Origin: an uncultured Gemmatimonadales bacterium
GTDB lineage: Bacteria > Gemmatimonadota > Gemmatimonadetes > Gemmatimonadales > GWC2-71-9
DNA length: 64,000 nt
Assembly: GCA_963795085.1 (NCBI GenBank)
Contig: CAWCFX010000001.1
Coordinates: 672,001 to 736,000 of the forward strand
Direction: 5' to 3'
Shown here in pieces: positions 8,983 to 26,321 of this stretch. The position numbers and the translations under genes are program-made. The notes below the pieces were generated by a model. It made no database searches, was not told the DNA's origin, and saw only the letters and a list, made by a program, of their open reading frames with translations. Each line of letters starts with the position of its first letter. The first letter of the stretch is position 1.

Positions 8983-9056
8983 TCGGGACGGCGGGATTTG
9001 AACCCGCGACCCCCTGAACCCCATTCAGGTGCGCTACCGGGCTGCGCTACGTCCCG
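8983..9056 (-). tRNA. tRNA-Pro (anticodon GGG), CCA not encoded
   Basis: CGGGACGTAGCGCAGCCCGGTAGCGCACCTGAATGGGGTTCAGGGGGTCGCGGGTTCAAATCCCGCCGTCCCGA folds as a cloverleaf; anticodon stem CCTGA/TCAGG, loop ATGGGGT; GTTCAAA T-loop. Confidence 0.95.
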
Positions 9057-21632: not shown

Positions 21633-23717
21633 TCAGCGGGTAGTTCGGACCCTGACCGACGCAACGGCGTCTCCCGGCAGAATGCGCTCCACCCCCTCCA
21701 TGCCCCCGATGACCTGCCCGACGACGGTGTACTCGTGGTCGAGTTGCGGGTTGTCCACCAGGTTGATGAACAGCTGCGCATCCCCGGTGTCGCGGCCCCG
21801 GGTGCTGATCCCCAGGGTGCCCCGGGCATGGGTGCGGAACCCCAGTTCGTCCCGCATGAAGCGGTCATCGCCGATGTATTCCGAGGCCCCGGGCCCGCCG
21901 CCCTGGATCACGAAATTGGGTTCCACCCGCTGCCACAGCTTGCCGTCATACCAGCCTTCGCGGGCCCGCCGGACCAGCCGCGCGATGGCCGCCGGTGCTT
22001 CCCGGCTGAACAGCCGCACGAGGAAGGAGCCGCCGCCGCTCTCCGCCGCCATGGTCACTTCGAGTTCGAGGCTGTCGCCGAGAAAGATGTCGGCCAGCGG
22101 CTCCGGTTCGATCGCCAGGGGGACCGGCGCCGCCTCGGCCGGCGCGCCCGTCCACCGGGCCAGCATGGCGGCCGCGGTGTCCGCGACCGTGGTGTCGAAG
22201 TCGCTGAGGTAGGGCTGGAGCCGCGCCGCCACCGCCGGGGTGCCCATCTCGCCGATCCGGGAGAGCAGCGCGAGCCGGGGATCCCGGGCGTTTTCGCTGC
22301 GCCGGCGGCTGACCCGGTCGAACGCGTTGAGTAATGCTTCCACCGCGCGCGGATGCTCCGAACCCGCCAGCGCCTCCGCCGCCGCGAGCAGGACCTGGTT
22401 CCCGTCCGACGAGAGCGCCGCGAGAAAGGTGGTGTCCGCCGCACGCTTCTCCGTGGCGGCCAGGCCGGCGATAGCCGCTTCGCGGACGTTATCGTCAGCG
22501 TCCCGGGCCAGCCGGTAAAGGACGCCGGGGGCGCTCACCAGGGCGGCTGCGCGGGCGGCGAACTCGCGGTTCTGCCATTGGCGAGCGCCGGCAAATCGCG
22601 CCAGCAACGGGGTGGCCCGGGCGGAGTCGATCCGGGCCAGGGATACCAGCGCAAACGCGCTGGCCTGCCAGTCGCGGCTCGAGGTATCGGTTTCGTCCGC
22701 GCGAAAACCCGCGACGGTGGCCAGGACAGATGCCGCGGCCTCGCGGTCCGCGCAGGGCTGTCCCAGGGCGGTTATCGCGACGAGGATAACATAGGGATGC
22801 GGATCTTCCAGCGCGGAAACCAGTGGGGCGCAGTCCGGCGCGGGCGCTCCCGCTCCGGTTCCCGCCCGGGCCGCGGCGACCGCCGCGATCCGTACCATGA
22901 AGCTGGAATCGGCGAACGCCCTGCGCACCAGCGCCGTCCGGGCGGCCGGCGGGAGCCCGGCCGCGCCGGCCATTGCCAGCCGGCGAACCTGCGGGTCGGG
23001 ATCCCGGCTGGCCGCCCGCGTGGTGGCGGAGTCGAGCGCGCCCGCCCGGGCAAGGGTCACCACCGCAAGTCGCCGATGCAGGGTGTCCTTCGAAGACCGT
23101 GCCGCCTCACGCAGGAGTCCGAGCGCCGGCGCCGGGAGATTGCCGAGGACCCGACGTCCCGAGGCCAGCCAGAAGAGCCCGTGAGTCATCCCGTAATCCA
23201 GCGTGCCGTTCGCCCGGGCCACGATCGCCTGGGTCGCCCAGCGGGCCTGCGCGCTGTCCCTGAGTTGGAGACGCCCGATCGCCTCGGCGATGACCCCGGC
23301 AACGCTGTCGTCCGATTCCCGGGCGATGGCCTCGGTGAGCACCCGGAGGGCGACCGGGACATCCAGGTGGGAGGGATCCCCGGCCGCCTGACCGCGCGGC
23401 TGGTCGCGCAGAGTCTGCGCCAGCGCGATGGCCGCCTCGGCGCGGATCGCCGGGAGCGGGTCCACCAGGAGGGGGAACAGCGCGCTCCCCAGGTCGGGCC
23501 GCTGCAGCCGGCCGACCGCGCGCGCCGCCACCCGGCGGATCAGGGTATCCCGGCTTTCCAGTCCTTCCATCAACGGCGCAATGCGATCGCTGCCCTGTCC
23601 GCGGGCGTCTTCGGCAATCAGCAGCCGCTGCAACGTGGCGCGTTGGGCCGCCTGAGCGACCGCCCCGCCAGGCAGAGCGGCGACGAGGGCAAGTGCCAGG
23701 GCAAGAGAACGTTTCAA
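21633..23717 (-). CDS. Secreted HEAT-repeat protein with C-terminal cyclophilin-type PPIase (start TTG 23717 or ATG 23765)
   Basis: Signal peptide; HEAT repeats; WQRVEPNFVIQGG, GRDTGDAQLFIN, LDHEYTVVGQV. Confidence 0.88.
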   Translation of the reverse strand: MKRSLALALALVAALPGGAVAQAAQRATLQRLLIAEDARGQGSDRIAPLMEGLESRDTLIRRVAARAVGRLQRPDLGSALFPLLVDPLPAIRAEAAIALAQTLRDQPRGQAAGDPSHLDVPVALRVLTEAIARESDDSVAGVIAEAIGRLQLRDSAQARWATQAIVARANGTLDYGMTHGLFWLASGRRVLGNLPAPALGLLREAARSSKDTLHRRLAVVTLARAGALDSATTRAASRDPDPQVRRLAMAGAAGLPPAARTALVRRAFADSSFMVRIAAVAAARAGTGAGAPAPDCAPLVSALEDPHPYVILVAITALGQPCADREAAASVLATVAGFRADETDTSSRDWQASAFALVSLARIDSARATPLLARFAGARQWQNREFAARAAALVSAPGVLYRLARDADDNVREAAIAGLAATEKRAADTTFLAALSSDGNQVLLAAAEALAGSEHPRAVEALLNAFDRVSRRRSENARDPRLALLSRIGEMGTPAVAARLQPYLSDFDTTVADTAAAMLARWTGAPAEAAPVPLAIEPEPLADIFLGDSLELEVTMAAESGGGSFLVRLFSREAPAAIARLVRRAREGWYDGKLWQRVEPNFVIQGGGPGASEYIGDDRFMRDELGFRTHARGTLGISTRGRDTGDAQLFINLVDNPQLDHEYTVVGQVIGGMEGVERILPGDAVASVRVRTTR

Positions 23718-23774
23718 GGTCGCTCCGGGACGGGGGTGGTTGCGGAAATCCGGTCGTGTCTGCATTGTAGTGGC

Positions 23775-23915
23775 CACAGGCGGGGTTCCACGCCTAACCT
23801 CTTCGGCTCTCCCCCAGCGGGAGCCCACGGGAGGCAAAGGGGGGCAGACCCTCGGATCGCAGGGCCAAACCTTTGGCGCCGCCGCCGGCGACGCTGCTGG
23901 GGAGCGTGCCGGAGG
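23775..23915 (+). ncRNA. Candidate structured leader RNA (unassigned family)
   Basis: Hand-folded 5' hairpin plus long basal stem enclosing a multiloop; sigma70-like TTGCGG-N17-CATTGT at 23740-23768 just upstream. Confidence 0.55.
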
Positions 23916-23936
23916 CCCGTCCAGAGGATCCTTCCG

Positions 23937-24617
23937 ATGACCACCAACAAAGACTATAAGCGTATCGTGCGCGCCCGCATGGTCCGAACCGGCGAGTCCT
24001 ATACTGCCGCACGGGCGCACCTCCAGGCTCAAGCGGATCCCGCACGGGCCGCCCTTCCCCGGGTCGCGGACCATGCCACCCTTGCCGGGATGAGTGACGC
24101 CGCCATCAAGGCCGGGACCGGCTGTGACTGGCGGAAGTGGGTCGAGGCCCTGGATTACAGGAAGGCCCACGAGTGGTCCCACCGCGAAATCGCCGCGTAC
24201 GTCCGCGAGAAGTTCAGGCTCTCCAGCTGGTGGAGCCAGGGTGTCACCGTGGGTTACGAGCGCATCAAGGGGCTCCGGGCCATCGGCCAGCGCCGCGGCG
24301 GCGACTTCGATGCGAGCAAGAGCAAGACATTCAACGTCGCCCTGAGCCGCTTGTATAACGCGTTTGGCGACAAGCGGAACCGGAACAAGTGGCTCGGTCC
24401 CGTGGAGCTGACGGTGAAGACGGCCATCCGGGGCCGGTCCATGCGGATCACCTGGTCCGACGGCAAGCCGGTGGAGATGTCGTTCGTCGCCAAGGCGCCC
24501 GGCAAAAGCACGGTCACCGTCACCCACCACAGGTTGCCGGATCGCGCCGCGGTGGACCGGGTCCAGGCCGAGTGGGCGGCGAGGCTGGAAGCCCTCGGAG
24601 CACTGCTGTCGCGCTGA
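23937..24617 (+). CDS. Basic hypothetical protein: N-terminal RARMxxTGESY helix, DUF4287-like domain, SRPBCC/START-like C-terminus
   Basis: ATG 23937 with AGAGGA; MTTNKDYKRIVRARMVRTGESYTAARAHL; GTGCDWRKW..SHREIA..WWSQGVTVGYE; VTHHRL..W. Confidence 0.8.
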   Translation: MTTNKDYKRIVRARMVRTGESYTAARAHLQAQADPARAALPRVADHATLAGMSDAAIKAGTGCDWRKWVEALDYRKAHEWSHREIAAYVREKFRLSSWWSQGVTVGYERIKGLRAIGQRRGGDFDASKSKTFNVALSRLYNAFGDKRNRNKWLGPVELTVKTAIRGRSMRITWSDGKPVEMSFVAKAPGKSTVTVTHHRLPDRAAVDRVQAEWAARLEALGALLSR

Positions 24618-24623
24618 AGGCGC

Positions 24624-26177
24624 TCAGTGGGTGCCGGCCGGGGCGGGTTTCCTCGGCATCATCCCGTCCCGGTTGGCCAGGCTGTACACCGTCCAGGCCA
24701 CGATAGTCGCGGCCTGCTGGAGGTCTTCGAGCACCAGCCGCTCGTAGGTATCCACGTGCGAGTGGTGGGAGCGGATCCCGTATTCCAGCGGATCCTGGAT
24801 GAACTGAAACCCAGGAACTCCGGCGGCATCAAAGGAAAGATGATCAGTGCCGCCGGTGGGATGGAGCCGGCTGGCGACGAATCCCACGTCGCGGAAGGGC
24901 AGCAGTAGCTGGTCAAAGACCCGCACGGCTGCTTCGTTATGCTGGCCCCACACGCCGCGGATTCGTCCCGATCCGTTATCGATGTTCAGGTAGGCCGAGA
25001 TTCGCGGCATCTCTGCCCGGTGCCGGCGCACCCACGCCCGGGAGCCGAGCAGGCCCTGTTCCTCGCCGCTCCAGAGGGCGATTCGCACCGTGCGCCGGAG
25101 CGGAAGGTCGAGGGACTTGAGAATACGCATGGCCTCCATCATGGCGAGCGACCCGGCGGCGTTGTCGGTCGCCCCGGTCCCGCTGTACCAGCTGTCGAAA
25201 TGGGCGCCGATCATCACCACCTCGTCCCTGAGGTCGGTGCCGGGGATCTCGCCGATCACGGTGAACTCGCGCTGGTCGGGATTGGTCCACCGGTTCTGCA
25301 CGTTCACCTCCAGCCGGGCGGCGACCCCGCGCTTGGCCAGCCGGTACAGCTGCCCGTACTGCTCGTGGGTCACCATCAGTGCCGGTGTCGGTTCGTAGGC
25401 GCTGTCCCTGGCCACCCGCCCATCGGGGTGGCCGCCGGTGCGGAGCAGGCCGTAGGTCCAGCCGGAGGGGATCAGCAGCATGGCCGGATGTTCCCGGCGG
25501 AGAAACCGGGTCACCGCCTGGTTGCGAGCCTGCGCTTCCCGGAAGCGGGCCTGCTGTTCCGGGTTCGCCTGGTTCCCGCCAGCCGGGGGTTCCGGCCGCT
25601 GGTTGCTCCAGGTGATGAGGGACTCAGCCGCGTGGCGCCGGGGACGGGAATCGAATTCAGGCCCGATCGGGTTCCAGGGCTGGGTCATCACGCAGGAGTT
25701 GCGGAGCTTCCCCGCATACTGGGCCAGGTCCGTGGTGTCCCGGATCTCCAGGAGGACGACGTCACAGGCGACGGTTCCCCGGGTACTGCCGCTCCATCCC
25801 ATGGGCTCGGCCCGCAGCGGTTGTTCAAAGGGGGCCAGGAAACGCCCGTGGTAGCTGACCCGTTCCCAGCCCCGGCCAAAGGTCGAGTCCCACGGCTCCA
25901 GCGCCACGTTCGTCAGGCCCCAGCCGCGGAGTGCGGCCGCCGCCCATTCCTGGGCCCGTCGCATGCCGGAGGAGCCGGTGAGCCGGGGGCCGATGCCGTC
26001 GAGCAGCTGCTGCGCAAGAGTATCCACCCGGCTCCGGGTGAGTCCCTCGTCCCGGATCCGCTGGAGCACCGCGAGGTCCAGCCGCTCCTGTACCACCTGG
26101 GCCGGCAGGGCGGCGGTCCCGGCGGGCAGCGCCAGCATTGCCAATAGCAGGCCGCGCACGACGATTCGAGATACCAT
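24624..26177 (-). CDS. Secreted M28-family metallopeptidase (carboxypeptidase Q-like)
   Basis: IGPRLTGS, GAHFDSW, GATDNAAG, WSGEEQGLLGS, GGTDHLSF, HHSHVDT. Confidence 0.9.
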   Translation of the reverse strand: MVSRIVVRGLLLAMLALPAGTAALPAQVVQERLDLAVLQRIRDEGLTRSRVDTLAQQLLDGIGPRLTGSSGMRRAQEWAAAALRGWGLTNVALEPWDSTFGRGWERVSYHGRFLAPFEQPLRAEPMGWSGSTRGTVACDVVLLEIRDTTDLAQYAGKLRNSCVMTQPWNPIGPEFDSRPRRHAAESLITWSNQRPEPPAGGNQANPEQQARFREAQARNQAVTRFLRREHPAMLLIPSGWTYGLLRTGGHPDGRVARDSAYEPTPALMVTHEQYGQLYRLAKRGVAARLEVNVQNRWTNPDQREFTVIGEIPGTDLRDEVVMIGAHFDSWYSGTGATDNAAGSLAMMEAMRILKSLDLPLRRTVRIALWSGEEQGLLGSRAWVRRHRAEMPRISAYLNIDNGSGRIRGVWGQHNEAAVRVFDQLLLPFRDVGFVASRLHPTGGTDHLSFDAAGVPGFQFIQDPLEYGIRSHHSHVDTYERLVLEDLQQAATIVAWTVYSLANRDGMMPRKPAPAGTH

Positions 26178-26321
26178 GGGGACGCTCCGTGTTGGGTAAG
26201 TGGCACCGGGCTGGCGGTGGTAAGGTAATATCCGGAGTAGGGAAATAAACCCGACCGCCATCCGTGGCATCCAAGCGGTTGACCCGTTGAAGATCATCTT
26301 CTCCTGCGCTGGAGTCGTGTC

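Follow-up and report, generated by a model that had tools for sequence, protein, structure and literature searches.

Structured cis-regulatory leaders, and autoregulation of a gene by its own product, are known kinds of control. For example, ribosomal proteins S15 and L20 and threonyl-tRNA synthetase of E. coli each bind the leader of their own mRNA and thereby regulate their own synthesis. Short arginine-rich motifs recognize RNA in the pairs formed by phage lambda N and boxB, HIV Tat and TAR, and Rev and RRE, and translational riboswitches such as SAM-II, preQ1-II, and preQ1-III bury the Shine-Dalgarno (SD) sequence in a pseudoknotted aptamer. Here, we analyzed a 64,000-nucleotide (nt) stretch of DNA from an uncultured Gemmatimonadales bacterium (contig CAWCFX010000001.1; the window, below), in which a leader RNA of approximately 155 nt that is conserved among relatives (23775-23930, plus strand) lies 5′ of a gene for a 226-amino-acid (aa) protein (23937-24617, plus strand; stop codon 24615-17). 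The leader is predicted to form a double pseudoknot and accompanies a basic peptide at the start of the protein. We know of no other leader coupled to an N-terminal peptide that can be transplanted between unrelated genes, in three phyla.

The locus resembles each of these systems in part. As with the S15, L20, and threonyl-tRNA synthetase leaders, a structured and often pseudoknotted RNA lies over the ribosome-binding site, and a basic protein segment (a proposal in our case) would act as the repressor. However, in those systems the RNA mimics the normal target of the protein and one gene family is involved, whereas here the proteins are enzymes or ligand-binding folds without a known RNA role, and a detachable 33-residue tag and its leader sit on unrelated genes. 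In the arginine-rich-motif pairs, too, a short, basic, helical peptide held by a flexible tether is matched to one particular structured RNA (binding is predicted here), but their RNAs are single small hairpins or internal loops that serve antitermination or export. Ours is a double pseudoknot of about 155 nt that holds the SD of the peptide's own mRNA, and no sequence relation of the peptide to theirs was found (0 PDB matches). Like SAM-II, preQ1-II, and preQ1-III, the leader has pseudoknots and an invariant core, places its SD in one strand of a conserved helix, and lacks a terminator; unlike them, it has no Rfam match, and the genes downstream share a peptide rather than a pathway. A further parallel is the yjdF motif, an orphan riboswitch candidate bound to a single gene family (PMC4793209). 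That conserved, structured leader occurs almost exclusively before one gene of unknown function (PMC4793209), as ours seems to within Gemmatimonadota, but outside its Gemmatimonadota class our leader moves to genes that share only the N-terminal peptide. The literature that we searched, which did not extend to subscription journals, held no description of a DUF4287 or carbon-nitrogen-hydrolase riboswitch or of the peptide motif, and what it held on riboswitch candidates was general discovery papers, none of them naming Gemmatimonadetes.

Fold of the leader and its comparative support

Support for the predicted fold comes from comparing the leader with its relatives, not from the window sequence alone. 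The protein has 5555 relatives at E ≤ 0.001 among 6893 candidates. The closest of these in related genomes are only 50–60% identical, and approximately 160 nt upstream of nine relatives align almost base for base with the window, compensatory changes included. Of 401 genomes from the phylum, 49 carry a 26-nt core pattern (≤2 mismatches), each of them exactly once, whereas a reversed control has no match; the pattern also lies in at least 120 metagenome stretches. Among the 161 core loci listed, which include a few duplicates of one place, a homolog starts 98–123 nt past the core in 155; five loci are cut by the end of a contig, and the leader of L060 is truncated. The 144 unique leader sequences were reduced to non-redundant sets and scanned for covarying columns. 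The top pairs outline hairpin P2a, the small hairpin P6, and the long-range helix P5, and they also join the P2a loop to the P6 loop.

In an alignment made with MAFFT only (44 sequences below 80% identity), 91.9% of cells pair and 25 of 47 pairs have changed on both sides, which none of 500 shuffles matched. A covariance model was built from the nested helices only, and 95 sequences below 88% identity were aligned to it; this larger alignment is fitted to the nested helices, while the long-range pairings PK1 and PK2 stand outside the model. Here, 96.3% of cells pair, compared with 41–55% when partners are slid, 28 of the 47 pairs carry compensatory changes, and 310 cells have changed on both sides compared with 65 in shuffles; again, no shuffle (0/500) reached the observed values. 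G-U pairs are frequent (at one P3 pair, in 91 of 95 sequences), and the structure therefore belongs to the sense RNA strand. A first-pass annotation, made from the letters of this stretch alone, had proposed a structured leader here, and a conserved, covarying structure does stand upstream of homologs. Two contributing genomes are unpublished: G018 (locus L003) is one row in alignments A1 and A4, and G083 supplies one row in A2 and A4 (L023) as well as a paralog (L194) with a partial RNA and Pfam scores. The main conclusions are independent of both.

All elements lie on the plus strand. The fold begins with hairpin P1 (AGGCG/CGCCU, 23778-23795, loop GGGUUCCA; 86.3% of cells paired), which the first-pass annotation had also seen. 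The P1 loop GUUCC (23785-89) pairs with GGAUC (23854-58) to form PK1 (23785-23858), with 97.7% of cells paired across the 95 sequences; the consensus is GAUCC/GGAUC, and four of the five pairs form in the window. P2 (CCUC 23798-801 with GAGG 23831-34; 23798-23834; 100% of cells paired) encloses P2a (GGCUCUC 23805-11 with GGGAGCC 23819-25, loop CCCCAGC 23812-18; 95.5%), where all seven pairs show compensatory changes and from which most of the top covariation scores come. Next is a nearly invariant core, CAAAGGGGGGCAGACCCUCGGAUC (23835-23858), which holds the PK1 acceptor and P3 (GGGGG 23839-43 with CCCUC 23849-53; 100% of cells paired, with wobble-only changes), represented in the conserved model by the invariant segment CAAAGGGGGG...CUCCC. 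A variable spacer follows GGAUC, and the remainder is nested, with P4 around P5 around P6. P4 joins an anti-SD, CCUUUGG (23870-76), to CCAGAGG (23921-27), in a register read from the window sequence (23870-23927). It has compensatory changes at six of six pairs and 95.8% of cells paired, and its variants include CUCUUGGG/CCCAAGAG in L007 and CUUCG/CGAAG in many others. P5 (GCCGC 23881-85 with GGAGGC 23911-16; 23881-23916) has compensatory changes at five of five pairs, of which four form in the window, and P6 (GCU 23893-95 with AGC 23903-05, loop GCUGGGG 23896-902) has them at three of three.

The loops of P2a and P6 are joined by PK2, a 7-bp kissing interaction (23812-23902) with 99.5% of cells paired and compensatory changes at four of seven pairs. 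The loop pair reads CCCCGGC/GCCGGGG in eight sequences and CCCCGAC/GUCGGGG, CCCCACG/CGUGGGG, or CUCCGGC/CCGGAGG in one each. As these alignments show, two long-range pairings dock a 5′ domain (P1, P2/P2a, P3, and the CAAAGGGGGG core) onto the 3′ domain formed by P4-P5-P6. The SD, AGAGGA (23923-28), lies within the 3′ strand of P4, 9–16 nt before the ATG, and the folded leader would therefore hide the ribosome-binding site.

Several helices drawn by hand in the first-pass annotation did not survive this comparison. On the 95 relatives, TCTTCGGC/GCCGGAGG, CAAAGG/CCTTTG, CCCT/AGGG, and CGCCG/CGGCG do not exceed shuffled or slid controls, with only 51.2% of cells paired. The partner of CCTTTG is the SD instead of CAAAGG, and the structure, which had been said to end just before the ribosome-binding site, includes that site as the 3′ strand of P4. 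What had been called a basal helix is half right: the complementarity of CCCCAGC with GCUGGGG is real and covaries, but it is loop-loop kissing. Two other pairings were tried and dropped. A helix P0, of 5′ CACGGGC with GCCCGUG before the SD, can be seen by eye in some sequences and is missing from others, and a local hairpin CGCC/GGCG, an alternative to P5, has 50% of cells paired. SD-like and anti-SD-like words make up three of the helices in the window and its relatives (23798-23927; CCUC/GAGG, GGGGG/CUCCC, and CCUUUG/CAAAGG), and the word CAAAGG occurs both in the real SD and in the invariant core.

Rfam 15 has no entry for this class of RNA, in agreement with the first-pass annotation, which could place the leader in no known RNA family. 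A scan of the whole window gave nothing over the leader and only a tRNA elsewhere; 23600-24100 at E ≤ 10 gave two small nucleolar RNA models at 10–12 bits, far below gathering; and nothing was found over the variant and plasmid leaders described below at E ≤ 0.1 or E ≤ 1. The class is unlisted despite well-studied hosts (Rhizobium, Sinorhizobium, and Streptomyces) beside soil Gemmatimonadota. Our own model has a second match in the genome of the window (L165, G000:C6:76418-76580; 21.9 bits, E 0.012), which lies within a 375-aa open reading frame and was taken as spurious.

A sigma70-like promoter precedes the RNA (23740-23768, plus strand), with a −35 box TTGCGG (23740-45), a 17-nt spacer, and a −10 box CATTGT (23763-68). 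Its letters are as the first-pass annotation gave them, and the arrangement is conserved in relatives. In 124 of 129 related loci the pattern TTGNNN-N16-19-NANNNT precedes the RNA at a fixed distance, compared with a mean of 8 and a maximum of 15 in shuffles. The spacer is 17 nt in 92 of 123 loci, the −10 box ends 59–66 nt before the core in 122 of 123, and the consensus across loci is CTTG(C/A)C, a 17-nt spacer, and CAtnnT; 5′ of the −35 box, flanks are unrelated between loci. A strict consensus scan for promoters and terminators called no site. The window promoter fits the conserved arrangement, and consequently we infer a transcript start around 23775, a few bases 5′ of P1. The sequencing runs listed for the locus are four soil-metagenome DNA runs from a single study, with small shares each, and include no RNA run.

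Leader and N-terminal peptide across genomes and phyla

Codons 1-33 of the gene (23937-24035, plus strand) encode a conserved basic peptide, MTTNKDYKRIVRARMVRTGESYTAARAHLQAQA, which we delimited from alignment A5 and a structural model. Its consensus is MxxxKDFKRLVRARMxKTGESYTxAR, and M1, K8, R12, R14, M15, G19, E20, and A25 are invariant in the 95 sequences of A5. The basic N-terminal helix of the first-pass annotation is modeled as a helical hairpin: an AlphaFold2 model from 61 homologs (predicted local distance difference test score, 88.7) has helices at residues 3-18 and 22-33, followed by disorder at 34-42. Synonymous codons vary along the peptide (K5 is AAA in 40 sequences and AAG in 36; D6, L10, T18, and E20 vary as well), and the peptide is retained in a locus of 53% G+C with different codons; this codon usage argues that the peptide is under selection at the protein level. 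Some codon preferences are unusual. Among 80 homologs, V11 is GTT in 38 and E20 is GAA in 54, compared with GAG in 69 of 80 at E108; CGC at R12 and R14 is a further case. Synonymous variation within codons 1-20 (23937-24000) is lower at R12, R14, and G19. These preferences may reflect accessibility of the start region or a mild constraint at the RNA level.

Within Gemmatimonadota, a protein search of the 401 genomes found a match in 74, and in each of the 49 that carry the core pattern the gene adjoins the RNA. Nine homologs start past the N-terminal hairpin and thus lack the peptide (in G170, G337, G185, G065, G287, G285, G244, G259, and G008), and none of the nine has the RNA upstream, even with model filters off. 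Three of them (G170, G337, and G185) are 54–59% identical over the aligned part, the same range as RNA-bearing orthologs, and in G185 a decayed trace of the peptide may persist. A profile built on the peptide only (alignment A5, 33 positions) matched 59 places in 57 of the 401 genomes, of which 49 are the canonical gene. Eight of the other ten have the RNA or a variant of it directly upstream; G320, where only peptide residues 2-21 are matched, has no RNA upstream, and the weak match in G043 was outside the check. Model scores for the eight are 84.9 bits in G268 (a diverged full-length homolog of 44% identity), 55.0 in G408, 37.8 in G254 (3′ half only), 32.6 for G058b, 30.8 for G083b, 20.9 in G385, 20.5 in G329, and 15.3 in G350.

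The genes behind these leaders differ. Four of the eight encode 429–445-aa BtrH_N and DUF4872 proteins (by Pfam for L201; by visual comparison of the translations for L239, L241, and L242), one encodes a 126-aa proline-rich membrane protein with a hydrophobic helix, and another is a paralog. The variants score low (15–55 bits) because their loops differ, and the architecture is kept. For example, PK2 reads CCCUGGC/GCCAGGG, CUCACGC/GCGUGAG, CCUUGGC/GCCAAGG, CCUGCGC/GCGCAGG, or CCUACGC/GCGUAGG, and PK1 reads CGGUCU/GGACCG, GGUCC/GGGCC, CCCC/GGGG, GCCUC/GAGGU, or UCCUU/AAGGA; P2a of L240, like P1 of the window, was read from the model alignment rather than from the automatic parse. In the sets examined, no case was found in which one part was kept without the other, the decayed remnants G254 and L060 aside. 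Together, these comparisons show an RNA that is tied to the N-terminal peptide and not to the DUF4287/AHSA1 body of the protein.

Some loci have a broken gene behind an intact leader, namely a frameshift in the peptide region in G401 (L205), a split gene in G364 (L209), an internal deletion in G188 (L206), and an in-frame TGA in G354:C3. The remnant in G254 (L243) reads MPTDK followed by a stop, behind the 3′ half of the RNA, and in L060 the truncated leader is joined to the 3′ part of a LysR-type gene, possibly as an assembly chimera.

The same arrangement is found outside the phylum. A tblastn search of plasmids with the 33-residue peptide returned 34 records, from Sinorhizobium (12), Rhizobium (11), Streptomyces (4), Phyllobacterium (2), Curtobacterium (2), and Nonomuraea, Microvirga, and Frondihabitans (1 each). 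Where the gene is annotated, its product is a "carbon-nitrogen hydrolase family protein" or a hypothetical protein, and the match begins with the first residue. The leader comparison took 11 of the 34 records, and seven of the 11 match the model just upstream of the start codon, at 43.6–79.1 bits: Microvirga (79.1), R. etli (57.8), R. ruizarguesonis (57.0), two Streptomyces (54.9 and 50.8), S. meliloti (48.5), and Nonomuraea (43.6, 5′ half only). A further Streptomyces locus scores 10.9 bits. The core GRGGNMAAGG lies 87–105 nt before the start codon in 10 of the 11, and L248 has the shorter GGCCAAGG. Nine of the 11 carry an exact 7-mer 20–23 nt before the core with its complement 58–72 nt after it, compared with 0.42 expected; an unanchored version of this test gave 10 of 11 against 3.0 expected, a high background. 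PK2 variants on the plasmids include CCCACGC/GCGUGGG and CCCGCGU/ACGCGGG. We distinguish four leader classes, namely canonical, BtrH_N, carbon-nitrogen-hydrolase, and actinobacterial GAGGNCAAGG. One plasmid copy, L249 (Sinorhizobium meliloti RU11/001 plasmid pSmeRU11c, 29906-29992), has ATA where the start codon should be, a single G-U within the kissing pair, and no gene annotation, and is probably a decaying copy of the module. Overall, the loci show promoter, leader, and peptide as a unit that recurs before unrelated proteins in Gemmatimonadota, Alphaproteobacteria, and Actinomycetota. The partner of the leader is thus a short peptide at the start of the protein rather than a gene family or a pathway, which is unusual for cis-regulatory RNAs.

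Searched against protein clusters, the peptide profile hits 3623 representatives at E ≤ 0.001, of which 715 reach E ≤ 1e-10, and Pfam finds mostly no family on 37 longer peptide-bearing proteins. Architectures with DnaJ, 2-Hacid_dh_C, or Glyco_hydro_31 look, on reading, like chimeric or frameshifted metagenome calls. In contrast, P0259, a 335-aa protein with a UVR motif and three Clp_N repeats behind the N-terminal peptide, seems to be a genuine additional architecture. A separate search of residues 1-40 against longer proteins gave none at E ≤ 0.001, the region being too short for a database of that size.

Proposed mechanism and alternative readings

We propose that binding of the peptide to its own leader locks the ribosome-binding site, so that the gene regulates its own translation, and we give this reading a probability of roughly 45%. 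The leader would be transcribed from its own sigma70-like promoter as the 5′ part of the mRNA for the 23937-24617 gene. The peptide, carried on a flexible linker, would bind the leader of its own mRNA, perhaps as early as its exit from the ribosome. Once bound, it would stabilize the leader fold and shut off further initiation, in other words negative translational feedback, and since the tag leaves the ribosome first, this feedback may act in cis. The features expected of an autoregulatory leader are present in that the structure overlaps the start region and the RNA co-occurs with the presumed binding part, which is adjacent on the DNA. That RNA and peptide are gained, lost, and transplanted together lends strong indirect support to leader binding, and it suggests a portable RNA-peptide control unit that was previously undescribed. 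A more ambitious version is more tentative still. It would make promoter, double-pseudoknot leader, and 33-residue hairpin a self-contained, horizontally shuffled cassette that can be grafted on any open reading frame, whose nascent tag closes the ribosome-binding site of its own message, giving co-translational, per-message feedback.

If the peptide does bind the leader, RNA and peptide make up a compact recognition pair that can be transferred and has translational control built in. It would be informative on how regulation evolves by cassette exchange and could supply a small orthogonal part for synthetic biology; if the cassette version holds, it would be a form of modular gene regulation undescribed in bacteria. 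The hypothesis is testable in tractable hosts that naturally carry the module.

Several observations weigh against peptide binding. The PDB held no match to the peptide profile at E ≤ 10, and consequently nothing independently marks the peptide as RNA-binding; likewise, the best ESM Atlas score for residues 1-34 was 0.76, with no family and thus no structural precedent. Co-inheritance alone is no proof of interaction because leader and peptide adjoin on the DNA, and any 5′ replacement or transplant moves the leader and the peptide-coding region together. Coupling to RNA columns within the canonical class is no stronger for the peptide than for other parts of the protein, a comparison that tells little because peptide and RNA core hardly vary there. 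It is also unclear why unrelated enzymes would need a common feedback. Three actinobacterial loci (L250, L251, and L253) have no model match and were assigned to the module by the core motif and the complementary 7-mers alone. Finally, single-sequence folding of the window leader is no better than dinucleotide shuffles (z = −0.42 on the plus strand and −0.86 on the minus strand), a result that the first-pass annotation had named in advance as telling against its structure and that the window, taken by itself, does give. We regard single-sequence folding as uninformative here because the sequence is 73% G+C and the fold is pseudoknotted.

Those z-scores, together with an open frame that crosses the leader in this G+C-rich genome, are what could be said for chance complementarity in G+C-rich DNA or an N-terminal coding extension. 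We consider either next to impossible, as covariation is far above controls and the leader behaves as non-coding: the distance from core to start takes every value from 98 to 112 in related loci, all values modulo 3, so that no reading frame is fixed, and indels among relatives are not multiples of three. A related suggestion is that the RNA is a constitutive structural 5′ untranslated region, for mRNA stability or a low translation rate, that hitch-hikes with the adjacent tag and has no functional interaction with it. Both parts do adjoin, and broken genes (G401, G364, G188, and G354) still keep an intact RNA. However, the RNA, with compensatory changes in every helix and both pseudoknots, and the peptide are under strong, separate purifying selection in three phyla, and neither is found alone in the sets examined, apart from the decayed remnants G254 and L060. 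We hold this explanation to be quite improbable.

An orphan riboswitch or a general sensor (of an ion, an alarmone, temperature, or the ribosome) would account well for the invariant core. A ligand bound there would stabilize the kissing fold and close P4 over the SD, and the peptide would serve some separate, common purpose, for instance in targeting, turnover, or DNA binding. Translational riboswitches typically combine pseudoknots and an invariant core with an SD that sits in a conserved helix, as this leader does; no intrinsic terminator is present, and there is one copy per genome; both a covarying structured leader and an expression platform (the SD in the 3′ strand of P4) are thus in place. 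In most sequences the anti-SD could instead pair with the core CAAAGG and free the SD, but this pairing lacks covariation, and 14 of 95 sequences have C-G for U-A at a P4 pair while the core A is invariant. The riboswitch reading is further weakened because the proteins (DUF4287/AHSA1, BtrH_N/DUF4872, carbon-nitrogen hydrolase, and the membrane protein) have no evident common pathway. The metabolic or transport theme usual among riboswitch-controlled genes is replaced here by a common N-terminal peptide, and neither that peptide nor the absence of the RNA from peptide-less homologs would be explained; on balance, we think this reading unlikely, if credible. An RNA thermometer, a simple and weak SD-masking hairpin, was set aside, since the leader runs to about 155 nt and comprises seven helices, both pseudoknots, and a core of 24 invariant nt. 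RNA and peptide might also be handles for a third, trans-acting partner (a chaperone, protease, RNase, helicase, or the 30S subunit), or the RNA a scaffold or localization element in a stable ribonucleoprotein with the finished protein, without any feedback switch. The module is portable across unrelated proteins and phyla, and SD-like and anti-SD-like words in several helices could engage the ribosome. Nevertheless, we saw no conserved neighbor gene, the flanks are unrelated beyond the promoter, no candidate partner was found, and the position of the SD inside P4 points to control of initiation, so that a third partner appears improbable to us.

The downstream protein and neighboring genes

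In the rest of the protein (24036-24617, plus strand), a variable linker leads from the peptide to a helical DUF4287-like domain (residues ~46-110), which is followed by an AHSA1/SRPBCC fold (~124-225), in keeping with the ligand-binding fold that the first-pass annotation expected. Its label of DUF4287/SRPBCC-like stands for the AHSA1/SRPBCC part, by structure, but DUF4287 is below threshold: PF14117 scores 14.7 bits on residues 56-98 (E 0.032) against a cut-off of 27, and the protein is therefore a distant DUF4287 relative rather than a scored member. The paralog L194 in G083 reaches 27.3 bits for DUF4287 (E 3.7e-6) and 6.7e-4 for AHSA1. Pfam gave no AHSA1 (PF08327) match on the window protein, and PF08327 is precomputed on the homologs P0002, P0020, and P0091. 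A Foldseek search with the model returned the Aha1/SRPBCC structures 2m89, 3q63, 4fpw, and 6v04 (E 6e-5 to 1e-3); single-domain chains gave template modeling scores, by target, of 0.55–0.66, with CalU16 and DynU16 among the matches.

The leader sits in the 171 nt that separate two divergent start codons. On its other side is a 710-aa HEAT-repeat/cyclophilin gene (21633-23765, minus strand), with a C-terminal cyclophilin-type isomerase domain and apparently a signal peptide. Its ATG (23765-63) falls inside the −10 box of the leader promoter, and the two genes may compete for or share promoter space. Downstream, a convergent M28-family peptidase gene (24624-26297, minus strand) ends 6 nt past the stop of the DUF4287/AHSA1 gene, and a consensus scan found no terminator-like site between the two. 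The sole Rfam match above gathering within the window is a tRNA gene (8983-9056, minus strand; 64.5 bits).

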